A stretch of 64,000 bases of DNA from Vulcanimicrobiota bacterium (GCA_050250895.1 JBFWNU010000003.1:256001-320000), one strand, 5' to 3'. Positions 8,417 through 64,000 are shown, counted from the stretch's first letter. The notes: generated by a model from the sequence alone, not told the origin. Numbers and translations are program-made.

Positions 8417-8827
8417 CTATTCGTCGAGCCAGCCTTCACCAGCGAGCAGGGTTCGGCAGGCCTCACAGAATTCGTGAGCGCGCGAAAAGATGTCCTTGAT
8501 GTCGTTCTCGGCGTAGATCGTCGAGGCATCATCGTCGGCTGCTTCTCGTTCGCCCTGGAGCTGGGTCAAAGCCCGGGGCGCTGAGCTGGGTAGTCTGCCA
8601 GGTCGGACGAAATGCAGGTTGAGAAGGGTGGCGATTCCAGTATGGGTTCGAGCCTCGAGACCTTCGGTCAAAAGAACGGCCCGAGCCGAATGAACCATGG
8701 CGTAGTAGGCCCGCGAGACCGCGTCGGCGTTGAGGCCTGCCTGGCGCAGATTGGCAGCCGCCAGCCAGCTTTCTTGCCCGCGCTTGAGTTCGAGTTTCAG
8801 GTTGCGGCGTCGATTGTCTTCGGTCAT
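8417..8827 (-). CDS. HEPN domain protein (UPF0332-type), partner of the adjacent MNT
   Basis: AVSRAYYAM..AR, THxG and R..AD motifs; 4-nt overlap with the MNT gene. Confidence 0.85.
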   Translation of the reverse strand: MTEDNRRRNLKLELKRGQESWLAAANLRQAGLNADAVSRAYYAMVHSARAVLLTEGLEARTHTGIATLLNLHFVRPGRLPSSAPRALTQLQGEREAADDDASTIYAENDIKDIFSRAHEFCEACRTLLAGEGWLDE

Positions 8828-9132
8828 ACCTGAATGCCTTCTTCCAGAATGTCTCGGGCCAGCCGGCGCTCGTGGTCGAGTAGGCCCTGGAAATGAGACT
8901 CGCTCATGACGTGGGGGCTTGGGGCATATGGCAGCGAAAGCTCGTCAGCCACATCCCAGGCCAGCCCCATCAGCTCCATTCTCAGGGCTCGGTCCTCCTC
9001 TCGTTGCATTACGAACAGGTCAAGGTCCGAGTCGAGCTGGGCGTCACCCCGCGCCCGCGAGCCGAAGATGCGAACTTGCTGAACAGCCTCACCGTATAAC
9101 TCTCTAGCCCGCTCACGGTAGCGTGCGTGCAT
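8824..9132 (-). CDS. Minimal nucleotidyltransferase (MNT); start uncertain
   Basis: FGSRARGDAQLDSDLDL (GS-x10-DxD) motif. Confidence 0.85.
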   Translation of the reverse strand: MHARYRERARELYGEAVQQVRIFGSRARGDAQLDSDLDLFVMQREEDRALRMELMGLAWDVADELSLPYAPSPHVMSESHFQGLLDHERRLARDILEEGIQV

Positions 9133-9319
9133 AGTCCAGGTCAAGCTGGGTGGGCATGGAGAAAGCTTCAGGACCAACAACAGCTCTCCCTGTCGGGCAA
9201 ATTATGGGGAAACCGTAACAATGTGTTCATCTGGTGTCAATATTTAGGGGCCGGGGTCGAAACTTGTCGCGCCAACCGGGATCTAGAATGGTCGAAACAG
9301 ACACCCTCAGGAGGCCCCA

Positions 9320-20813: not shown

Positions 20814-23597
20814 GTGACGGTGGTCCGAGTCCAGGCCACCTGGAAGGAGGACCGTTTTTGGTTGTGGCTCCGCGACGCTCCCTCCGGCTATTCTCTGGAA
20901 CAGCTGGTCCCCGGTCTTCCGAATAGTGACGCCCAACCGCTCGAGCTTCGTCTGCCCAACGGGCCGGTGACGGTGAGCGGTTGGCCGTTCGAGGTGGGAC
21001 CAATGGTGGCTCCCCTGGCTCGCCTGCCGGTCGACTGCCCCGCCGGTAGTGACCTGAGAGTGTTCAGCCTGGCCGCGCGCTGGTTGTTGGCCTTGCTGGT
21101 GCGTCAACGCTGGCTGCCGTCGGTGCAAGACGGTCAGACCTTCTTTCGCCCCTCCTTTGACGACATGAAAGACCAGGCTCGCCTGCAACAACTCGAGCAA
21201 CTGTTGCCCCCGTCGGCCCGAGCGGCCCAACCCGAACTCTCGCCGCGACAGGTGCTCGAGCGCTTTGCCGAGGTGGGCGTCCACCAGTTGCTGAGCGATT
21301 GGCTGGGCGAAGGCCGGGTCCGGCTGCCGGCCAACCGGCTCAAGTCGCTGCCGGAGGACTACGCTAGCTGGTTGACGGATCTGGCCCAGGGCCACATCCA
21401 GGAGCTGGCACCAACCCTCGAGCGAGAGCTGGCCCGTTGGCAGATGCCTCTGGCTCCTGAACTGGCCACCACTCGTCTGGCCTTTGCCCTGGTACCGCCA
21501 GACCAGGGCGGCTGGCGCTTGGAAATCAGGTTGGAGAGCCGGCTCGGACCCGGTCTATCAGCCGGAGTGGAGGATATCTGGGACAGGCCTCACGAGTTGC
21601 CTCAAGAGTTACGCCTCGACCCACGAGGACCCATGGTGGCTCTGCTGGTGGATCTGGGTCGGGCCATTCGCGTCTTTCCCGAGCTGGGACCGGCTATGGC
21701 CGGTCCTCGTCCCGAGGCGCTCGAGCTTGACCACCAGGAGGTCTACCAGTTCTTGCGCTCGACCGCCTGGCTGTTAGAAGAGATGGGCTTCGGGGTGGGG
21801 ATGCCCTCGAGTCTGCGCCAATTTCAGCCCCTGTCGATGCACTTGAGCGTGAAGGAATCCGCCCAGGGCGGCAAAGGTCTCGACATTCTGGTTGATTACG
21901 ACTGGCAGGTTCGCCTGGGGGAACAGCCGCTCAACGAGGCCGAGCTGCGTCAGCTGGCCGGAGCCACTTTGCCCCTGGTGTGCCTGCGCGGGCAATGGTA
22001 CCTGCTCGAACCCGATAGTCTGCGCCGGGCCCTGGAGCTATGGAATCGGGGCGGGGCCAGAGGGGCGACTCTGGGTGAGGCCCTGGCCGCCTCGCGCGTA
22101 GGGTTGGCGGTCGACTTTACCTTTGAAGGCGGTCTGGCCGGGCTGTCGGGACGTTTCGCGCTGGAACCCCCGCCCTCGACCCTGCGCGCCCAACTGCGGC
22201 CCTATCAAGAACGAGGTTACTCCTGGCTGGTGTTCCTACGCGAGCGCGGGCTGGGGGCCTGCCTGGCCGACGATATGGGCCTGGGTAAGACAGTGCAGTT
22301 GATCGCGTTGCTCTTGCGCGAGCGTGAGCAACATCCCGGATTGGGACCCACCCTGCTGGTATGTCCCACTTCGATCGTGGGCAACTGGTGTAAGGAACTC
22401 GAGCGCTTTGGTCCAGAGCTGCAGGTGATGGTCCACCACGGGCCGGGGCGGCCGAAGAGTCTCGAGCCAGCCGGAGTGGACCTGGTGGTGACGACCTATG
22501 GTTTGGTTCACCGTGATCGCCAGGTGCTGGCCCGGGTCAAGTGGCGGGGCCTGGTGCTTGACGAAGCCCAGAATGTCAAGAATCCGGCCTCTCTGCAAGC
22601 GAAAGCAGTGCGCGCCATGACGGCTGGGTTTCGAGTCGCCATGACAGGCACGCCGGTGGAGAACCGGTTGGCCGACCTGTGGGCCCTGATGGACTTTCTT
22701 CAGCCTCGCTTGCTGGGCACCCGGCGGGGCTTTCAGAAACAGTTCGCCGTGCCGATCGAACGCTACGGCGATGAAGCCTGCCGCGAGGGGCTCAAGAATC
22801 TGGTTGGACCGTTCTTGCTGCGCCGCAAGAAGACCGATCCCGATATCGCGCCCGACCTGCCCGACAAGGTGGAGTACAACCTCTACTGCCGGCTCACCGG
22901 CGAACAGTCGACCCTTTACGAGCAAGCCGCCGAGCAGTTGCTCGAAGAGGTCAGCCTGGCCGAAGGCATCACCCGCAAGGGTCTGGTGCTCAAGCTTTTG
23001 ACCCGGCTCAAGCAACTCTGCAACCATCCCGGCCTCTATCTGGGCGGACTCGACCCCATGGCAGGCCGCTCAGGCAAACTCGAGCGGCTCGAGGAGATGC
23101 TCGAGGAGGTGGTGGCCTGCGGCGACGCGGCCCTGGTGTTCACCCAGTTTGCCGGTTTCGCGCAACGGCTGGCCGGGCATCTGAGTGGCCGTCTCGACCG
23201 CGAAGTGCTCTGTCTGCACGGCGGCCTCTCGCGAGTTGCCCGCGACCGGGTGGTGCATCGCTTTAGCCTGAGCTACGGACCGCCGGTGATGGTCATCTCG
23301 GTGCGAGCCGGTGGCGTGGGCCTCAACCTCACCCGGGCAAGTCGCGTGTTTCACTTTGACCGCTGGTGGAACCCGGCCGTCGAAGCTCAGGCCACCGATC
23401 GCGCGTTTCGTATCGGCCAGACCCGCAAGGTCGAGGTCTATAAGTTCATCTGTAGCGGCACTCTCGAAGAGCGCATCGACCTGATGCTGGCCCACAAAGC
23501 CCGACTGGCCGAGACGGTGGTGGGCAGCGGTGAGGACTGGCTGACCAGCCTGGACGACGAAAGTCTGGGAGCACTGCTCCGGTTGGAGCGGCGATGA
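20814..23597 (+). CDS. SNF2-family helicase (YwqA/DUF3670 type)
   Basis: LRPYQ, LADDMGLGKT, LDEAQ, TGTPVEN, SGK and QATDRAFRIGQ. Confidence 0.93.
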   Translation: MTVVRVQATWKEDRFWLWLRDAPSGYSLEQLVPGLPNSDAQPLELRLPNGPVTVSGWPFEVGPMVAPLARLPVDCPAGSDLRVFSLAARWLLALLVRQRWLPSVQDGQTFFRPSFDDMKDQARLQQLEQLLPPSARAAQPELSPRQVLERFAEVGVHQLLSDWLGEGRVRLPANRLKSLPEDYASWLTDLAQGHIQELAPTLERELARWQMPLAPELATTRLAFALVPPDQGGWRLEIRLESRLGPGLSAGVEDIWDRPHELPQELRLDPRGPMVALLVDLGRAIRVFPELGPAMAGPRPEALELDHQEVYQFLRSTAWLLEEMGFGVGMPSSLRQFQPLSMHLSVKESAQGGKGLDILVDYDWQVRLGEQPLNEAELRQLAGATLPLVCLRGQWYLLEPDSLRRALELWNRGGARGATLGEALAASRVGLAVDFTFEGGLAGLSGRFALEPPPSTLRAQLRPYQERGYSWLVFLRERGLGACLADDMGLGKTVQLIALLLREREQHPGLGPTLLVCPTSIVGNWCKELERFGPELQVMVHHGPGRPKSLEPAGVDLVVTTYGLVHRDRQVLARVKWRGLVLDEAQNVKNPASLQAKAVRAMTAGFRVAMTGTPVENRLADLWALMDFLQPRLLGTRRGFQKQFAVPIERYGDEACREGLKNLVGPFLLRRKKTDPDIAPDLPDKVEYNLYCRLTGEQSTLYEQAAEQLLEEVSLAEGITRKGLVLKLLTRLKQLCNHPGLYLGGLDPMAGRSGKLERLEEMLEEVVACGDAALVFTQFAGFAQRLAGHLSGRLDREVLCLHGGLSRVARDRVVHRFSLSYGPPVMVISVRAGGVGLNLTRASRVFHFDRWWNPAVEAQATDRAFRIGQTRKVEVYKFICSGTLEERIDLMLAHKARLAETVVGSGEDWLTSLDDESLGALLRLERR

Positions 23598-24343
23598 GGT
23601 TCGGCTCGACCTGGTGGTCGCGACGCTGGCTGCGCTCTCTAGAGGGCAGCGTATGGTCCACCCGTCTGCCCGCCGACTCGGGACAGGTGGTTGCCATCGA
23701 GATTCACCAGGGAGTGGTCCAGGCCGAAGTGCTCGACGGCGAGCAATATCATGTTCGCTTCGAACTCGAGCCGCTCGGGCAGGCCGATTGGCAAGAGGTC
23801 CTCGATGTCATTGCTGGTCGCGTCTCGATGGCGGCGAGTTTGCTGAACCGGCGCATGCCGGCCGATGTCGAAGAGGCCTTCTCGGTGTGTGGACGCTCGC
23901 TTCTGCCGACTTCAGCCCACGATCTCGAAGCGCGTTGCAGCTGCGAAGACACCAGGACTCCCTGCCGCCACGCGGCGGCCGTAGCCTACGTCCTGGCCGA
24001 AGCGCTTGACCACACTCCGCTCTTGATGTTTAGTTTGCGGGGCCTCGAGCCGGAGCGGGTGATCGAAGCGCTGGTCCGGCGCTGGGGGGGCCAACCCGTG
24101 AGTCTGGAGCCGCCGGTTGCGCCGGCCGCCCCCCCTTTGCCCGAAGACCCCGACGAGTTCTGGGGCGAGGGTCGGCCGGTCGAACTGGAGGTCGGCCTCA
24201 AGGCCCCCCGGCTGGCGTTGGCACTGGTGCGGCGCCTGGGCGTTCCCTATCGACGTATCGATGAGCAAGACTGGGAGGCTTTGCTGGGCAAGATCTATGA
24301 CGAAGTGGCCCGAGTGGCCCGCAAGACCGCCCTCGAGCCCTAG
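23594..24343 (+). CDS. SWIM zinc finger protein (YwqB-like)
   Basis: FGSTWWSRRW N-terminus and CSC..PCRH motif; 4-nt overlap with SNF2. Confidence 0.9.
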   Translation: MRFGSTWWSRRWLRSLEGSVWSTRLPADSGQVVAIEIHQGVVQAEVLDGEQYHVRFELEPLGQADWQEVLDVIAGRVSMAASLLNRRMPADVEEAFSVCGRSLLPTSAHDLEARCSCEDTRTPCRHAAAVAYVLAEALDHTPLLMFSLRGLEPERVIEALVRRWGGQPVSLEPPVAPAAPPLPEDPDEFWGEGRPVELEVGLKAPRLALALVRRLGVPYRRIDEQDWEALLGKIYDEVARVARKTALEP

Positions 24344-57455: not shown

Positions 57456-58384
57456 CTTGTCATCGTGCCTCTCTGAATGGTTGGTTGAGCGTCAGCGGCC
57501 GGAGTGGCCGGAACCTTGGCCGGACCGAGGGCCGGCTGACTGAAGACTCCATTGTAGTGGTCGGGGCCGTGGACCGAGTCAGGGTTGCCGCTTTGGGCCG
57601 CGTGGGGGTCGAGGATGATGACCAGCTTCGGGTTGCGAGTGGATTGCAGGGCGGCCATGTTGTGCTCGGTATTGCGCGTGCCGAGGGCCACGATCAAACC
57701 GGTCGTTCCGCCGACCAGGGTGCCCAGGGGGCCACCCAGTGCGGTTCCGCCGGCGGCCATCTTGACGATGATGATGCCACCGATGGGGGCACCGAAATAG
57801 GCTCCATACTGCCGTCCGGCTCCCGGGTCCCAGCTATAACTGTGGACTGTGAACGGATTGGAACCGCCGGTTTGAGGGCCGAGGACCTCGAGAGTCTTGT
57901 CGGACATGTCGGCACAACCGCGAGTGAACGTATCGCCGCTGAAGCTGTTGAAGAAGTTGCGCAGGCCTCCGGGAGCTCCGTCGAAGACGCGGGGATTGGC
58001 CTTGACGTAGCCGTTGATGCCGTTCTGGTATTTGGTCAGCAGGTCGCCCAGGTTGCCCAGTTCGGAAGGGGTCAGCTGGTTAAGCACGTTGTTCAGGGCG
58101 GGGTCGTTGTTGGCCTGGTTGGCAAGAGCTGCGATGGGCGAATCAGGGTGGTCTTTCACCCAATTGCTGAAGTCCCCAACCGACTCTTCATCGGCCGAGG
58201 CTCCGGGTTGGTCGGGAGTGTCGGGGTCGACCCGGCCTGGGTCAAGCGACGGCGGGGCCGAGATGCCGGTAGGCGTGGTGGTCGAGCTGCCCGGTGGACA
58301 GGTGCAGTTCGGGGGTTGGGCCCAGGCGATACCCAAGACTAGAATGAGTAGGCAGAGGGTCCATCGTCTGATCAGGTTTTGCAT
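57452..58384 (-). CDS. Secreted protein with possible papain/transglutaminase-like C-H-D triad
   Basis: RBS GGAGG; signal peptide; GCADMS, EHN and ILDP; glycine-zipper insert. Confidence 0.65.
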   Translation of the reverse strand: MQNLIRRWTLCLLILVLGIAWAQPPNCTCPPGSSTTTPTGISAPPSLDPGRVDPDTPDQPGASADEESVGDFSNWVKDHPDSPIAALANQANNDPALNNVLNQLTPSELGNLGDLLTKYQNGINGYVKANPRVFDGAPGGLRNFFNSFSGDTFTRGCADMSDKTLEVLGPQTGGSNPFTVHSYSWDPGAGRQYGAYFGAPIGGIIIVKMAAGGTALGGPLGTLVGGTTGLIVALGTRNTEHNMAALQSTRNPKLVIILDPHAAQSGNPDSVHGPDHYNGVFSQPALGPAKVPATPAADAQPTIQRGTMTR

Positions 58385-58483
58385 GGCTACCTCCAATGCT
58401 CCCACCTAATCTGTAGCAGAATTTGAGCGGAGGGAGTATGTCCGCGATCATTTCCAAGCCGGATTTTGGGGGGCACGGCCGCT

Positions 58484-60022
58484 TTACCCGGCCGCGTTTC
58501 GCGGTAGCCTGGCCGGGCGATAGCCGTTGGTGACCGGCATCAGGCGGCCGCCGCCGAAGGCGGTAACCGAAACCTTGAGCACGATCGGGCCCTGGCGGCG
58601 CTTGAGCTGATGGCGCTCGAGGCCCGGGTCGACGCGCCGCTCGGCGATGGTTGCCTCGATCCGCGGGGCCACCCGCGCGTAGTCGAAAGGGTCGACCTGC
58701 TCGGGCCGCAGTTCGGCGCTGGGAGGTCGCTCCAGGATGAAGTCGGGAATCACGGTGCGACGGGCCAGTTGATAGACCTGGGGCTTGGTGAGGTCACCCA
58801 GGGGGCTCAAGGTGCCGGCCAGGTCGCCATAAAGAGTGCCATAGCCCAGGCTCAACTCGGTCTTGTTGCTGGTGTTGAGCAGGGTACCTCCGAAGCGGTT
58901 GACATAAGCCATAAGAATGACCATGCGCAGGCGGGCCTGAACGTTCTCGGCTCCGGTGCCCTCGAGCAAGCCGTCGAGGCTGGCCTCGGCCGCCGCGTGC
59001 AGCGGCTCGAGCGATCGGACCTCGAATTTGATGCCGAGCCGGCGTGCGAGTTCGGCGGCCGATTCGGTCGAACGCGGGTCGTTGTGGCGCGATGGCAGGG
59101 CCACGGCCAGGACTCGCTCGGGTCCCACTGCGTCGGCAGCCAGGCAGGCGACCAGGGCCGAGTCGATCCCGCCCGACAGGCCCAGCACAGCGTAGTAGAG
59201 GCGATTCTTGTCAAGAAAGTCGCGCACTCCCAACTTGAGCGCCTGCCAGGTTCGGGCCTCCCAGCTGGGCTCGGGAAGGAGGCAGCAGGAGCCGGGTGTG
59301 ACGATCGTAATACACTCGTCGAATTGGTCCACCTGGTGCAGACTACCAGCCTGGTGGCAGAAGCTGCCTCCGTCAAAGATCAGCTCGTCTTGACCTCCCA
59401 CTGCGTTGACGTAGATCAGCGGCAACTTCTGACGGGCCGCCATTTCTAGCCGCCGCTGCTCGATACCCTGGCGATAGGGCGAGGCCGAGAGACAGACCAG
59501 GATCTCGGCTCCGGCGCGGGTCAGTTCGGCTCCGGGGTGGATGGTGTAACTCTCATCCCAGAGGTCTTCGCAGAGCAAGATTCCCAGGCGTTTTCCAGCC
59601 ACCTCGACCGGAGTGGTGGGAGGCCCCGGCTCGAACCAGCGAGGCTCATGGAAGACATCATAGCAGGGGAGTATCTGCTTGGCCCGGCGGGCCAGGATGT
59701 GGCCACCCTCGGCCACCACGGCCTGGTTGTAGAGGCCGGGCGAGTTGGGTCGAGCAAAGTCGGCCCGACCCAGGCTGCCCAAGATCATGGCCGGCCCTCC
59801 GGCCGTGGCCTCGGCCAGTTCGTGGTTGATGGCCTCGACGCGGGTCACCAGGGCGCTGTCGTAAACCAGGTCCAGCGGGGGGTAGCCGGTCACGATCATT
59901 TCGGGAAAGACCACCAGTTCCGCGCGACGTTCGGCAGCGTAGGCATAGGCCGCCAGTATGCGGGCGCGATTGCCCTCCAGGTCGCCTACACGGCTATTAA
60001 TCTGGGCGATGGCGATACGCAT
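58484..60022 (-). CDS. nadE: Glutamine-dependent NAD+ synthetase
   Basis: Nitrilase triad FPE / K..LP / CEDLW; LSGGIDS, ENVQARLR, NKTE and PSAEL; RBS AAGGAGG. Confidence 0.95.
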   Translation of the reverse strand: MRIAIAQINSRVGDLEGNRARILAAYAYAAERRAELVVFPEMIVTGYPPLDLVYDSALVTRVEAINHELAEATAGGPAMILGSLGRADFARPNSPGLYNQAVVAEGGHILARRAKQILPCYDVFHEPRWFEPGPPTTPVEVAGKRLGILLCEDLWDESYTIHPGAELTRAGAEILVCLSASPYRQGIEQRRLEMAARQKLPLIYVNAVGGQDELIFDGGSFCHQAGSLHQVDQFDECITIVTPGSCCLLPEPSWEARTWQALKLGVRDFLDKNRLYYAVLGLSGGIDSALVACLAADAVGPERVLAVALPSRHNDPRSTESAAELARRLGIKFEVRSLEPLHAAAEASLDGLLEGTGAENVQARLRMVILMAYVNRFGGTLLNTSNKTELSLGYGTLYGDLAGTLSPLGDLTKPQVYQLARRTVIPDFILERPPSAELRPEQVDPFDYARVAPRIEATIAERRVDPGLERHQLKRRQGPIVLKVSVTAFGGGRLMPVTNGYRPARLPRNAAG

Positions 60023-60915
60023 GGGAGGACCTCCTTGGCCACTTCTTCCAGCAGGTTGAGGGCGGCCAGCACCGTGTCTCGGCGCAGGCAAACCTCGTCC
60101 CCGAGCATGAAGGTTCGATAGCCCAGCCCGATCAGATAAGCGGCGTCGCTGATATCGGCCGCGCTGGGCACGAGGTCGCTGGCCAGCGAGCCAAACAGGC
60201 GGCTGGCCACGATGGCGGTCGGGTCGGCCTCGATGACGGTTTTGAGGGCGGCCAGAATCCGGTGGGGCCGCATCACCTCGACAAAGAGATCGCCGCGGGC
60301 GGCCATCAGGCGCCCGTGGCCGGCACCCTCGCGGCGGGCCAGTTCAAGACCGGCCAGGCTCTCGATCTTGAGCACCACCTCGGCCTCGGGCAAGCGCCCT
60401 CGCACGGCCGCCACGTCCTGGCCAGACTGGGCGAAGCTAAGCATCACCCGCCGCAGTCCTAGTTCGCGCATAGCAGCCAGATAGCTCTCGTCGGTCGGGG
60501 TGAGCAGCCCCTCGACTTCAAGACTGGGGTCGACAAGGTTGACCGACTCGCCCGGACCGACCAGTCGCCGTGGGCCATCGGCCAGGATGAGCCGGTCGCC
60601 ATCCACCGCCACCACTCTGGCTCGCTCGCGACCATCGTTGAAGTAGGCGTCGCAGGGCGTGTTCACCTGCAGGCGATGGCTGACCCTCACTTCGGTGAAA
60701 GGCGGAACGGCCGCTCCCACCACCCGCAACTGGCGCGCTTTGAGATCGACCCACAGTGGTTGCCCAAACCCCGCCAACCGCTCGAGCACGGGAGCGGGCG
60801 GCCCGGCCAGCGGCATGACCGTGTTCAGGCGCAAACCGCCGACCAGGGGATGGGCGGCCACTTCCGCCACGAAGTCGGCATAAGGCGGCACGGTGACGAT
60901 GGCCGAGAGATTCAT
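59986..60915 (-). CDS. Pyruvate-kinase-like protein lacking the C-terminal domain
   Basis: RLN, DLK, SFAQ..DV, KIE, ARGDL.VE, PSAADISD and ML.DE; about 309 aa. Confidence 0.8.
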   Translation of the reverse strand: MNLSAIVTVPPYADFVAEVAAHPLVGGLRLNTVMPLAGPPAPVLERLAGFGQPLWVDLKARQLRVVGAAVPPFTEVRVSHRLQVNTPCDAYFNDGRERARVVAVDGDRLILADGPRRLVGPGESVNLVDPSLEVEGLLTPTDESYLAAMRELGLRRVMLSFAQSGQDVAAVRGRLPEAEVVLKIESLAGLELARREGAGHGRLMAARGDLFVEVMRPHRILAALKTVIEADPTAIVASRLFGSLASDLVPSAADISDAAYLIGLGYRTFMLGDEVCLRRDTVLAALNLLEEVAKEVLPCVSPSPRLIAV

Positions 60916-61814
60916 CAGGCTGTCCGTCCGGTGTCGCGCATGACGCGGGTGATGCGGCGCTCGATCTTGGCGATGGCCGCCTCTTCCTGGCGGGCCGACA
61001 TGTTGACCTTGAAGTCGCCGAAGTGTCCCCAATGGCGAGCGATCAGGCCCATCGCATAGTCGACCGCCCGGGGCTCGTCGTGAATCTGGATAATCTTTTG
61101 CTCACCCACGGCCTGGCTCCACTGCTTGTCGACCTTGTCGCCTTTGCGACCGGCTCGGCGCAAGAACCAGGTGTCCCAGGTGCGGGCCACCTGTTGCCAT
61201 GTCTTGATCGAGTCCTGGTTCTGAGACTCGCGAGCACCCAGGATGTCGGTCAACTCGCTGGCCTTGATCTTGGCATGCATGGTGGCGTCACCAAAGACGA
61301 TGAGGAAAGGCTTCTCGCCGGTCTTCTTGATGCTCACATGGTTGGCCAGCCACCAGGCGAAGAGGCCGTAGCTCTCGGGCTCGTCGCCGCCGCCGCCTTC
61401 GCCGTAGAGCGACTTGAGTTCGGTTTCTAGGGCGAAGCCTTTGGCAAAGCGGGTTACCTGCAAAGGCCAGCGGTCGCAGTGAGCGTCACCGATGGCGGCA
61501 AAGCAGATCTCGAGGTCGGGTCGATACTGAGAGAGGGTGTTGTAGACCAGCGGTAGGCGGTCAAAAATCTCGGCCGGCCACCCGGCCATCGAGCCGGTGA
61601 CATCGACGGCGATGACCAGCGGAGTCTTGGTCTTCGGAGCCAGATGCTTCTTGGGGTCGATGAGGCTCTCGTCAGGTCCCCGGTGGTTGTAAGTACGCGG
61701 GCCGCGCGAAGCAGCTTCGCGGGCGTCTTTGGCGCGCTCGGCCTTGCGAGCGGAGTCGAATCGATAGGCGCCCGGTCGGGCCCAGTCTTCCATAGAATCT
61801 CCCCAAGAATACAT
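60915..61814 (-). CDS. vWA domain protein
   Basis: MIDAS DVTGSM, IGDAHCD..PLQV, EGGGG...ESY and FGD; RBS GGAGG. Confidence 0.85.
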   Translation of the reverse strand: MYSWGDSMEDWARPGAYRFDSARKAERAKDAREAASRGPRTYNHRGPDESLIDPKKHLAPKTKTPLVIAVDVTGSMAGWPAEIFDRLPLVYNTLSQYRPDLEICFAAIGDAHCDRWPLQVTRFAKGFALETELKSLYGEGGGGDEPESYGLFAWWLANHVSIKKTGEKPFLIVFGDATMHAKIKASELTDILGARESQNQDSIKTWQQVARTWDTWFLRRAGRKGDKVDKQWSQAVGEQKIIQIHDEPRAVDYAMGLIARHWGHFGDFKVNMSARQEEAAIAKIERRITRVMRDTGRTA

Positions 61815-61825
61815 GGTAGCCTCCT

Positions 61826-61870
61826 AGGTGTAGTGTCTACACTTAATAATAGTGTATAGCAAACACTATT
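61826..61870. promoter_or_regulatory. Tandem NrtR-type operators (GT-N7-AC) in an AT-rich promoter region
   Basis: AATAGTGT-ATAGCAA-ACACTATT (61848-61870, perfect) and GTGT-AGTGTCT-ACAC (61828-61842). Confidence 0.7.
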
Positions 61871-62591
61871 TCAAGAGGTGGCGTTCAAAAATCTTGAGGG
61901 GGTCGTCTTTGTCCCAGCGGGGACGGCGTTCTGGCTCCTTTCGGCTGAGACTGACCAAAAGCGCAAGCAGCGGCTCGGGCACGCCCTCGGGGAGGATGCG
62001 CCGCTCGATGTCACCACCCATGGCATAAAGAAGCGAGACGGCCAGCGAGTAGAGGTCGGACTCAGGTAGGGGAGGCGCGCCGGCGGCCACCTCGGGAGCC
62101 ACGAACAGGGGCGTGAAGCCGGCCGCGCTCGAGCCCCGGCGCGGCTTGACGGTGGAGACTCCGAAGTCGACCAGGACCACCCCATGCCGGTCGGGCTCGA
62201 GGAGGATGTTCTCGGGCTTGATGTCGTTGTGCACGATACCCCGATGGTGCAGCAGCCGCAGGGCTCGCAGCAGCCGCCCCAGGACCTGCACGGCCACGGC
62301 CGAATCGATGGGGAGCATGGCTTCCAGGGTGGCTCCTTCGACGAATCGCATGACCAGTGCCAGTCGGCCGTCATCGAGGCGAAACACCTCGCGCAAAGTA
62401 GGCAAGCTAGGATGGTGCAGGTCCCAGAGTATTCTGGCTTCGGCCAGAAACAGGTCGCTGTGGGCGGTCGTGTTGGCCACCTTGATGCAGGCGCGGGTCT
62501 TGAGCAACCGATGGACGGCCTCATAGGTGGTAGCAAATCCGCCCGCTCCCAGCTCGCGCACCAGGTCATAGTTGCCGAGCTTCGCTAGCAC
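61866..62591 (-). CDS. Stand-alone Hanks-type Ser/Thr protein kinase
   Basis: GAGGFA, IK, HNDIKPEN, DFG, APE and DLYS; no sensor domain. Confidence 0.92.
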   Translation of the reverse strand: MLAKLGNYDLVRELGAGGFATTYEAVHRLLKTRACIKVANTTAHSDLFLAEARILWDLHHPSLPTLREVFRLDDGRLALVMRFVEGATLEAMLPIDSAVAVQVLGRLLRALRLLHHRGIVHNDIKPENILLEPDRHGVVLVDFGVSTVKPRRGSSAAGFTPLFVAPEVAAGAPPLPESDLYSLAVSLLYAMGGDIERRILPEGVPEPLLALLVSLSRKEPERRPRWDKDDPLKIFERHLLK

Positions 62592-63109
62592 CCGAACTGC
62601 TCGCGATAGCGCCGGTCGAGACCGTTGTCGGTGAGATACTTTTCAATGCAACCGGGAACCAGATGCTGCCATGGCTCGCCAAGGAGCATGGCTTGGCGGA
62701 CCATGGTGGCGTTGATGGGTTGGCGCTGCTCCTCGGGCACCAGATGGACCGGGTGAACCACCTGATAGTCCTCCAGCAGCAGGCTGCGCACGTAGCCGTT
62801 GGCGGTGATGAACAGATCGAGGGGACCGAGCCGCTCCACCACCATCTGGCGCCAGCGTGGCCCGTGGCCAAGATCGGGAAACTCCTCCACCTCGAAGTCG
62901 TGACCGGCTAGCACGAGCTCGAGCATGCGCCTGGTTTCGGCCACCGTGAAAGGGTTGTCGCGGTCGTAGCGATTGCTGCTGCCGATGCCGATGACCACCT
63001 GGTCGGCGTAGTCGACCAGGGCCTGCAAGACAGCCTGATGGCCGAGGTGGACGGGCTTCCAGCGGGCGATCATGGCTAACCGCCCCACGTGGGCCGGAAG
63101 AATGTTCAT
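62585..63109 (-). CDS. nadM: NadM-type nicotinamide-nucleotide adenylyltransferase
   Basis: RWKPVHLGH (HxGH), IGIGSS, NPFT..E and INATMVR. Confidence 0.8.
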   Translation of the reverse strand: MNILPAHVGRLAMIARWKPVHLGHQAVLQALVDYADQVVIGIGSSNRYDRDNPFTVAETRRMLELVLAGHDFEVEEFPDLGHGPRWRQMVVERLGPLDLFITANGYVRSLLLEDYQVVHPVHLVPEEQRQPINATMVRQAMLLGEPWQHLVPGCIEKYLTDNGLDRRYREQFGC

Positions 63110-63112
63110 TGG

Positions 63113-63472
63113 CTACTTGTGGGCCTGGATGGTGACCTCGAAGTTGGCCTCACGCTCGGCCGTCAACACCACCGTATAGGTGCCCGCGCGCAGTGGCTTG
63201 AGCAGCAGTTTGCGATAGCCGTAGGGGTCGAGGCGGCCGCTGCCGGCCAGGTTGCCGTCGGGGTCGGTGACCTCGAAGTTGGCCGACTTTTGCGAACTTC
63301 TGAAATAGACCCACAGCTCTTGCCCAGGCGCGCCTTCGACCACGAAGACCTGCATCGACCCCGGCACCAGATGGCCCGTGAACGTGCCCCCGTCAGCCGG
63401 CACCGTGGTCGCCGTCTGGGCCATCGCGGCCAGGCTCAGTAGTAAGGATAGCAAAGTGAGTTGAAGTCGCAT
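63113..63472 (-). CDS. Small secreted PPC-like beta-sandwich protein
   Basis: RBS GAGGA; signal peptide; GQEL.V, V.DPDG and GTYTV. Confidence 0.7.
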   Translation of the reverse strand: MRLQLTLLSLLLSLAAMAQTATTVPADGGTFTGHLVPGSMQVFVVEGAPGQELWVYFRSSQKSANFEVTDPDGNLAGSGRLDPYGYRKLLLKPLRAGTYTVVLTAEREANFEVTIQAHK

Positions 63473-63529
63473 GTTCGTGTCCTCTCGCCAGTAGTTTCCC
63501 ACCGATGCGCCCGCCAACCTGCACTTGCC

Positions 63530-63587
63530 GACGACCGGTCGCGGGTCGTGGCTCACCGGTTGCCTGCCCACACTTCCGCGCGGAAGT
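63530..63587 (-). repeat. Degenerate solo copy of the ACTTCC-N4-GGAAGT repeat family
   Basis: ACTTCC-GCGC-GGAAGT at 63572-63587; on the minus strand CACGACCCGCGACCGG resembles CACGACCCTCGACCGG of the 6.6-kb unit. Confidence 0.55.
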
Positions 63588-64000
63588 CAGGATGCGTTTC
63601 GAGGACTGGCGCGTTTGTGTCCTGGAAGTCTTGGACTGCAATCGCAAGCGATGGTCCTTCTGGCTCGTTCGAGCGGAGGCTGTGCAGGCATTGGTCGGGG
63701 GGGTCTGGCGCGGTCTACTGCGGCTGTCGACCCAGTTTCTTGTCCGTCCTCAGGCCCGTGGAGCCGTTCTATCGGTGCCATGGCCCAAAAAGAACCCTAG
63801 TTTCATGACGCTTCGCTGACCACCCCGTAGGCCCTCATGGAATGTAACCACCAGCGATCCCGCAAGAGCAACGAGAGCGCACAACCAACCCAGTGATGCC
63901 CTAACTCGTCGAAGCGACGGGGTGCATACTCGCTGTGTAGTCTCGCATTCATCCACCCGTCCTCACCTCGCCAGGTCTTCGAATAGTCGCTGAATGAACT

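Follow-up and report, generated by a model that had tools for sequence, protein, structure and literature searches.

In the 64,000-nucleotide (nt) stretch of Vulcanimicrobiota bacterium DNA analysed here (GCA_050250895.1 JBFWNU010000003.1:256001-320000, referred to as the window), five tightly packed minus-strand genes at 58484-63109 encode a NadM-like nucleotide adenylyltransferase, a Ser/Thr protein kinase, a protein with a predicted vWA fold, a mini pyruvate kinase (PKL) and a NadE. This cluster appears to be an accessory NAD-resynthesis operon that stands apart from the housekeeping NAD pathway. Its commonest conserved core is nadM, a regulatory box and vWA-PKL-nadE, without the kinase, and the kinase is part of a distinct mobile trio (kinase, vWA and PKL) that is found mostly without NAD genes. 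The reading that we prefer, and to which we give about an even chance, is that the operon is controlled by an NrtR-type repressor and carries a mobile regulatory module that supplies ATP; the biochemistry in this reading is one that we infer.

The gene transcribed first, nadM-like (62585-63109, minus strand), encodes 174 amino acids (aa) with a match to PF01467 (CTP_transf_like) at E 4e-07 and an HxGH-type motif that reads PVHLGH. Its best NCBIfam matches are the archaeal-type NMNAT models PRK01153 (79 bits, cut-off 127) and TIGR01527 (64 bits, cut-off 181). The kinase gene (61866-62591, minus strand) encodes 241 aa consisting of the catalytic domain alone, with Pkinase (E 1.8e-31) as its sole domain. 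The predicted vWA-fold protein (60915-61814, minus strand, 299 aa) was recognized through an AlphaFold2 model searched with Foldseek and matches phrog_2971 at E 3.5e-19. PKL (59986-60915, minus strand, 309 aa from its ATG) has the A and B domains of pyruvate kinase without the C domain, as judged from a PF00224 match of 32.9 bits and a structural model. The last gene (58484-60022, minus strand) encodes a glutamine-dependent NadE of 512 aa from the ATG at 60022, with 2 domains, CN_hydrolase (PF00795, E 5.5e-20) and NAD_synthase (PF02540, E 6.7e-55), and scores 444.5 bits against NCBIfam NF010588, slightly under the cut-off of 479. An earlier note on this DNA had described 5 co-oriented genes with 3 overlaps and boxes in the only gap, and all of this was borne out. 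The nadM stop and the kinase GTG overlap by 7 nt, the vWA TGA and the PKL ATG by 1 nt (TGATG), and PKL and nadE by 37 nt, leaving 61815-61865, between the kinase and vWA, as the sole intergenic gap. Nothing in Rfam matched within 58000-64000 at E<=1.

Around this gap lie a candidate promoter and 2 palindromes. A sigma70-like promoter for vWA-PKL-nadE, TTGAAA-17-TATTAT (61846-61874, minus strand), is predicted from its consensus match alone, at 10 of 12 positions. A pattern search located 2 predicted NrtR-type boxes, both unstranded: box 1 (61850-61868) is a perfect palindrome, TAGTGT-N7-ACACTA, with a GT-N7-AC core, and box 2 (61826-61844), 24 bp from it, reads AAGTGT-N7-ACACCT on the minus strand and has 2 mismatches. 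Both boxes are situated within or just past the promoter, with box 1 spanning the spacer and the -10 hexamer. By chance, 0.23 matches with <=2 mismatches would be expected in the window, and at least 1 match occurred in 20 of 100 shuffles; the perfect form of the palindrome occurs once in the whole 9.5-Mb genome, as box 1. The palindromes and the promoter consensus together place a predicted operator on the promoter of vWA-PKL-nadE. In the NrtR regulon study of Rodionov et al. 2008 (PMC2330246), most NrtR sites are described as a 21-bp palindrome with a GT-N7-AC core, NrtR binding in vitro is suppressed by ADP-ribose, and nadM and nadE are among the known targets, for example in Synechocystis (nrtR-#nadE and #nadM-nadV).

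The gene set is kept together well beyond this genome. A vWA profile search of contigs from one genome per species yielded 250 loci confirmed by tblastn, of which the best 80, from Chloroflexota, Myxococcota, Acidobacteriota, Eremiobacterota-like lineages and others, were retained for counts. The window proteins were mapped onto these 80 loci, in which open reading frames (ORFs) came from simple longest-ORF calling and were identified by tblastn; loci with enough flanking DNA were treated as assessable. The gene immediately after vWA is PKL in 64 of 65 assessable loci, nadM lies upstream of vWA within 1.5 kb in 67 of 74, and nadE follows PKL in 39 of 52, while a kinase with at least 50% identity is present in 3 of the 80. 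Of the 5 genes that the earlier note grouped, nadM, vWA, PKL and nadE travel together, and the kinase falls outside the commonest core. Across phyla, vWA and PKL are ~55-72% identical to the window proteins, and mean column identity in the vWA alignment (A1) is 63%. The nadM-vWA-PKL-nadE form is located on large chromosomal contigs. Within the window's own phylum, the vWA gene has a patchy distribution, since it occurs in 9 of 121 sampled genomes, counting that of the window.

Clustering of the neighboring ORFs in the 80 loci revealed no additional conserved neighbor. One large cluster (cluster 3) was dropped because it consisted of antisense low-complexity ORFs, an artefact of the simple ORF calling. 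Immediately ahead of the operon, an ORF of 152 aa that includes a signal-like hydrophobic segment (63113-63571, minus strand) ends 3 nt short of the start of nadM, which makes co-transcription of the two possible; this ORF had no family match and no relative among the 80 loci.

The same 80 loci (913,906 bases) were searched for TAGTGT-N7-ACACTA, allowing <=2 mismatches with the core intact. Of the 24 boxes recovered, 21 lie <=250 nt upstream of a vWA start, 2 lie upstream of nadM and 1 is elsewhere, and 18 of the 80 loci have a box upstream of vWA. Since the boxes mostly precede vWA, the regulated unit would typically be vWA-PKL-nadE, with nadM upstream of the operator. In 5 other operon-carrying genomes, box counts at <=1 mismatch showed no excess over a reversed-pattern control, and only perfect and tandem sites are informative there. 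In 2 Chloroflexota genomes (G003 and G002), tandem boxes are found between an nrtR (Nudix plus NrtR_WHD) and a downstream Band_7 gene, and G002 has a further box in the same promoter context ahead of nadC.

The window's own genome encodes, away from the cluster, what appears from its sequence to be a cognate NrtR (C6:553823-554899; NrtR_WHD 101 bits plus NUDIX). Its gene is divergent from an NAD kinase gene, and the protein is 55-57% identical to the box-linked NrtRs of G003 and G002. A second, more distant NrtR-like gene is found on C1, 3.6 kb upstream of nadC; from their sizes, we guess that the ORFs in between are nadA and nadB. No box indicative of NrtR autoregulation was found upstream of either of the 2 nrtR genes in this genome. 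On every feature checked, namely the operator motif, the link to nrtR and NAD genes and the presence of a genome-encoded NrtR, the cluster qualifies as a predicted member of an NrtR regulon. The earlier suggestion of NrtR-type boxes is thus well matched by the motif, by its position across loci and by its linkage to nrtR.

Several other genes are found beside boxes of this type. In the window's genome, a one-mismatch box, TGGTGTATATGATACACTA (G000:C6:235501-240500, L088), sits between 2 divergent units, one an operon of KptA/Tpt1 and an inositol-monophosphatase/ADP-ribosylglycohydrolase fusion and the other a 615-aa protein with no Pfam match, an arrangement resembling the NrtR-linked ADP-ribosylglycohydrolase systems of PMC9503650. 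TAGTGT-N7-ACACTA boxes also stand ahead of a Band_7/SPFH gene in 3 genomes (L098 in G003, L107 in G002 and L089 at G000:C6:398965). The Band_7/SPFH gene comes directly after nrtR in 2 of the 3, and the box in the window's own genome has one mismatch. This gene may be an unrecognized member of the NrtR regulon described here. A TIR-domain gene is found near a one-mismatch box in G002 (L103, C9:89714-92732), and in G003 a Ser/Thr kinase gene (L098:2525-3019) is divergent from nrtR.

The accessory status of the operon follows from the rest of the genome, which has a separate nadD (above its cut-off), nadC, a second nadE of 654 aa (G000:C14:11001-18000, L090) and 2 full-length pyruvate kinases; there is also a weak NAPRTase-like gene. 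The earlier note had left it to be seen whether housekeeping nadE, nadD and pyk exist elsewhere, and all 3 do. The 2 observations that it had named as fatal to its proposal were not made: the gene set is conserved together in other genomes, and neither the nadE nor the pyruvate kinase of the cluster is a sole copy. That note's overall interpretation thus holds in part, for the conserved set, the NrtR-type boxes and the separate housekeeping genes, and gives way over the kinase as a core member; its stress or conflict role, and its suggestion that PKL supplies ATP or phosphorylates a salvage intermediate, stay at the level of proposals. Immediately upstream of the second nadE is a prs-like gene (Pribosyltran_N plus Pribosyl_synth, 308 aa), with a PNP_UDP_1 plus DUF952 gene close by, and no TAGTGT box was found at this locus. 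A prs-like gene beside NAD genes recalls the ADP-ribose-recycling chemistry of the NARP1 type.

PKL is weak by sequence, with a marginal 32.9 bits against Pfam PK (threshold 30) and 51 bits against TIGR01064 (cut-off 306). Its structural model is confident (pLDDT 92), and Foldseek matched it in the PDB to 5ws9_A (TMq 0.81, E 6e-21), from which the predicted fold is the A-domain barrel of pyruvate kinase with an inserted B domain. The model ends after the barrel, leaving no C-terminal allosteric domain. In a profile alignment, the KIES, ARGDL-VE and ASR segments of PKL correspond to KIEN, ARGDLGVE and ATQ of solved pyruvate kinases; K183 and E185 (KIES) and D209 (ARGDL) align with their counterparts, and S238 replaces a Thr. 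Within the PKL family (alignment A2), R29/N31 and D57/K59/R64 are invariant, as are the N-terminal stretches RLNTV and DLKGRQLR. By their roles in pyruvate kinase, these conserved residues would comprise the catalytic Lys, the ligands of Mg and the positions that bind phosphoenolpyruvate and nucleotide. Compared with solved pyruvate kinases (5ws9, 1pky), PKL thus shares the A barrel, the B domain, the Lys/Glu and Asp positions and the N-terminal Arg/Asn stretch. It differs in its length (309 versus ~470 aa), in lacking the C-terminal allosteric domain, in scoring below the NCBIfam cut-offs and in being paired with a vWA protein.

An exhaustive search with a PKL profile returned 162 representatives at E<=1e-30, and since almost all of them are ~300 aa long, PKL appears to be a family of its own. 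One could ask whether PKL regenerates ATP at all or whether, together with vWA, it acts on another substrate, for example phosphorylating a precursor of NAD or an intermediate derived from ADP-ribose, or makes an unknown nucleotide metabolite, so that it would provide a missing biochemical step. The separate family is in keeping with such a role, as are the score of 51 bits against an equivalog cut-off of 306, the cross-phylum identity of vWA and PKL, which is unusually tight for a mere adaptor, and the presence elsewhere, in the place of PKL, of ligases or kinases specific for certain small molecules. Speaking against it, the residues presumed to bind phosphoenolpyruvate, Mg and nucleotide phosphate are kept. 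No salvage step is obviously missing either, because the genome has a route to nicotinic acid mononucleotide (nadC and the weak NAPRTase-like match) and a metagenome contig described below (L129) has pncA and pncB. We consider a different PKL substrate quite unlikely. In a single representative (P0157, 568 aa), the mini pyruvate kinase is fused to a QueC-like PP-loop ATPase domain with an SGGxDS motif. The PP-loop ATPase superfamily also takes in the synthetase domain of NadE.

The vWA protein has no match in Pfam, NCBIfam or PADLOC, the Pfam vWA models included. Its AlphaFold2 model (pLDDT 82) is assigned by Foldseek with probability 1.0 to the vWA domains of integrin beta-I and NorD, which supports a predicted Rossmann-like vWA fold. 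For comparison with the MIDAS consensus, D-x-S-x-S plus a Thr/Asp further on, the MIDAS-like D71-V-T73-G-S75 and FGD176 are invariant in 20 vWA sequences, and the protein also has an invariant GEGGGG loop. The only longer homolog, a candidate vWA fusion of 597 aa (P0121), proved to be a frameshifted miscall of vWA plus PKL and no true fusion.

Relatives of vWA were found in 209 phage records. Bixzunavirus mycobacteriophages have a Ser/Thr kinase, then vWA, then a PurA-like adenylosuccinate synthetase, and a Vibrio phage has NADAR, a hypothetical gene, vWA and PurA-like in that order. An uncultured jumbo phage of 485 kb (LR745208) encodes a J-domain kinase followed by vWA and PKL, with 36% identity to the window kinase (E 4e-52), 35% to PKL (E 5e-48) and 27% to vWA. 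In IMG/VR, the bacterial vWA profile found no relative, and a phage vWA query found the LR745208 phage alone. A genome of the same phylum as the window (G040) has the order J-domain kinase, vWA and PKL without NAD genes and, elsewhere, vWA followed by a PurA-like gene. The J domain of the phage kinase (L110:3932-4966) matches Pfam DnaJ, and the N-terminal extension of the G040 kinase (L121:4516-5625) aligns with it, with HPD in both; the window kinase is without this part. The J domain suggests that the fuller form of the trio may be linked to Hsp70.

A metagenome scan with a kinase profile returned 80 loci. Among these, 20 kinases scored at least 100 bits against the window kinase, 17 of them assessable downstream. 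vWA comes directly next in 16 of the 17 and PKL directly next in the remaining one, and, among 10 loci that extend at least 1 kb past vWA, 8 have PKL after it. The 60 weaker kinase matches had neither vWA nor PKL nearby. One contig (L123) has the same order as the window, nadM-kinase-vWA-PKL-nadE. Another, of 172,740 bp (L129), has pncB, pncA, nadE, Nudix, nadM, kinase, vWA, an unknown gene and PKL, plus a weak NAD-kinase-like gene. The earlier note had proposed looking for pncB, pncA and Nudix genes beside these families, and in L129, where the operon spans the whole salvage route from nicotinamide to NAD, they do accompany kinase-vWA-PKL. The neighbors in L129, and in L137 and L138 below, were named from PDB sequence matches alone. 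In L129, pncB matched at E 7.5e-36, the nadE-like gene is single-domain, and a 296-aa gene is only weakly amidotransferase-like.

In 2 further contigs, which share only 33% identity, a gene resembling a fusion of phosphopantetheine adenylyltransferase (PPAT) and dephospho-CoA kinase (DPCK) lies directly upstream of kinase-vWA (L137:1-894 and L138:3-977). With PDB profiles it scores E 2e-10 as dephospho-CoA kinase and E 4e-5 as phosphopantetheine adenylyltransferase. This arrangement looks like a coenzyme A-type counterpart of the NAD arrangement. The GC content of trio contigs ranges from 28% to 69%. Judging from these gene orders, the mobile module itself is probably kinase-vWA-enzyme, in which the enzyme may be PKL, PurA-like or PPAT/DPCK-like.

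In the reading that we prefer, NAD cleavage would produce ADP-ribose, which, from published NrtR behavior, would release NrtR from the 2 boxes so that vWA-PKL-nadE is transcribed; nadM and the kinase, lying upstream of the operator, would be transcribed separately. From their family membership, NadM and NadE would carry out the adenylylation and amidation that are the last 2 steps to NAD, each using ATP. PKL would convert phosphoenolpyruvate and ADP to ATP without allosteric activation, feeding NadM and NadE when energy charge and NAD are low. vWA could work in a Mg-dependent way as an adaptor for PKL or as a partner that regulates it, and might do the same for NadE and NadM; the dedicated kinase would switch the vWA-PKL pair by phosphorylation. 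Our confidence in these last 3 roles, PKL as ATP source, vWA as adaptor and kinase as switch, is moderate to low. A theme of adenylate supply is suggested because the alternative partners of the module (PurA-like, PPAT/DPCK-like and the PP-loop fusion) act, like PKL, on adenine nucleotides or adenylated cofactors.

Several observations weigh against this reading of an NrtR-controlled NAD operon with an ATP-supplying module. The kinase is missing from 77 of the 80 genome loci and is therefore not essential to the common nadM-vWA-PKL-nadE form. Most kinase-vWA-PKL loci are without NAD genes, and the role of the trio may therefore not concern NAD specifically. With 2 full pyruvate kinases already in the genome, an extra source of ATP is not obviously needed. 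PKL and NadM both score below their NCBIfam equivalog cut-offs, and either may act on substrates other than those of the family it is named after. The operator consensus was seen in just 18 of the 80 loci, and the search of the window's own genome gave no box at nadD, at its second nadE, in the nadC region (putative nadABC) or at either nrtR.

The scarcity of NAD genes around the trio would also be expected if kinase-vWA(-PKL) were a general signaling module that works as a phosphorylation switch, with an output unrelated to NAD and with NAD genes sharing its promoter by accident. The J domain on some of the kinases suggests a chaperone link, and PMC9503650 (section 3.8) considers vWA proteins as peptide-binding chaperones in systems linked to NrtR. 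Against an accidental association stand nadM before vWA in 67 of 74 loci and nadE after it in 39 of 52, in several phyla, and an operator predicted directly on the vWA promoter. Moreover, NAD genes accompany the trio in 2 or more independent architectures, those of the window and L123 and that of L129, and all of the alternative partner enzymes act on adenine nucleotides or adenylated cofactors. We regard a signaling role unrelated to NAD as highly improbable.

The phage copies raise the further question of whether the cluster serves conflict and not ordinary homeostasis: in bacteria it would confer resilience against NAD-depleting toxins or abortive infection, and in phages it would be a counter-defense, a route to NAD and ATP beside NARP1-3. 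vWA homologs in 209 phage records, the kinase-vWA-PurA-like order in Bixzunavirus, vWA-PurA-like beside NADAR in a Vibrio phage and an orthologous trio on the 485-kb phage are all in line with this, as are the patchy occurrence in the phylum (9 of 121) and the 28-69% GC of trio contigs. Induction through an ADP-ribose sensor would suit a response to NAD cleavage, and phages are already known to rebuild NAD. On the other hand, no defense or anti-defense gene was recognized adjoining the cluster, in the window or the 20 kb past it. PADLOC matched the kinase domain alone, through the generic models mad6 and PD-T4-6, and left vWA, PKL, NadM and NadE unmatched. The IMG/VR scan with the bacterial vWA profile gave no relative, and the nadM-vWA-PKL-nadE form resides on large chromosomal contigs. 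The phage copies, the patchiness and the ADP-ribose control thus favor a conflict role, and the chromosomal setting and the lack of recognizable defense neighbors do not; we hold it to be a possible but somewhat unlikely explanation. A DUF6602 gene (L001:2588-3850) and an nSTAND1/AAA_16 STAND NTPase gene (L001:7084-9018) are found 3-9 kb beyond the window end, several kb upstream of the cluster and not adjacent to it; they may be of defense-island type.

In the literature searched, which leaves most subscription journals outside it, no description was found of a vWA/mini-pyruvate-kinase pair with NadM, NadE or NrtR. What appears to be new here is a conserved vWA and mini pyruvate kinase in a putatively NrtR-controlled NAD operon, in at least 250 species genomes. 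The closest regulatory parallel is the NrtR regulon itself. As described in PMC2330246, it shares with the cluster a palindromic GT-N7-AC operator over the promoter of NAD-synthesis genes, and the genome here likewise encodes a Nudix plus winged-helix NrtR. It differs in that the unit here begins with vWA and a mini pyruvate kinase, neither of which is among the NAD functions of Table 1 of that paper, which also lists the unidentified targets nrtX-nrtY.

The cluster also resembles NARP1-3 in being a compact NAD-rebuilding set common to phages and bacteria, and NARP2 and NARP3 share with it the NMN (nicotinamide mononucleotide) adenylyltransferase step. In the portions of the NARP descriptions available, however, the defining genes are others: Adps/Namat (NARP1), NadV (NARP2) and PnuC/NadR (NARP3) are absent from the 5 genes, and the NadE, vWA, mini pyruvate kinase and protein kinase of the cluster are not part of those pathways. 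We therefore rule out that the cluster is NARP1, NARP2 or NARP3 as there defined.

TerY-P triads are another type of operon combining vWA and a Ser/Thr kinase, which the literature search did not bring up. A Deinococcus vWA-STPK-FHA-PP2C operon (preprint 10.64898/2026.01.23.701218) has, like the cluster, a cytoplasmic vWA beside a sensor-less kinase. The cluster differs from it in lacking the PP2C phosphatase and FHA, and its third partner is a nucleotide or cofactor enzyme. The NrtR/WYL-regulated ADP-ribosylglycohydrolase systems of Iyer et al. 2022 (PMC9503650) are similar in combining an ADP-ribose-sensing Nudix-HTH regulator with an accessory vWA, and the window's own genome has its one-mismatch box at the KptA / IMPase-ARG operon. 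In contrast to those systems, the cluster is without an ADP-ribosylglycohydrolase or phosphatase and is predicted to make NAD and not to remove ADP-ribose.

NAD depletion and reconstitution are central to the conflict between phages and bacteria, and 3 phage reconstitution pathways are known. A bolder idea, which we advance only as a tentative and on present evidence doubtful one, is that the trio with PKL, PurA-like or PPAT/DPCK-like enzymes is an unrecognized mobile module for restoring adenylates and cofactors, common to bacteria and large phages. In combination with NadM and NadE, and under an ADP-ribose sensor, as would be the case in the window, it would be a fourth kind of NAD reconstitution, one that replenishes NAD together with ATP once NADases or immunity that depletes nucleotides have acted, with vWA and the kinase as a switch that detects damage. 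If the vWA-PKL pair does regenerate ATP or gate NAD synthesis, it would be a new link between energy charge, protein phosphorylation and cofactor repair. If true, this would also assign a role to phrog_2971 and its relatives, a large group of phage and bacterial proteins annotated as hypothetical.

Elsewhere in the window, adjoining genes for a HEPN-domain protein and a minimal nucleotidyltransferase (8417-9180, minus strand) make up a typical HEPN/MNT toxin-antitoxin pair. At 20814-24343 (plus strand), a SWIM zinc-finger protein comes after an SNF2-family helicase containing DUF3670. Much of what is left of the window encodes two-component and chemotaxis-type signaling proteins.

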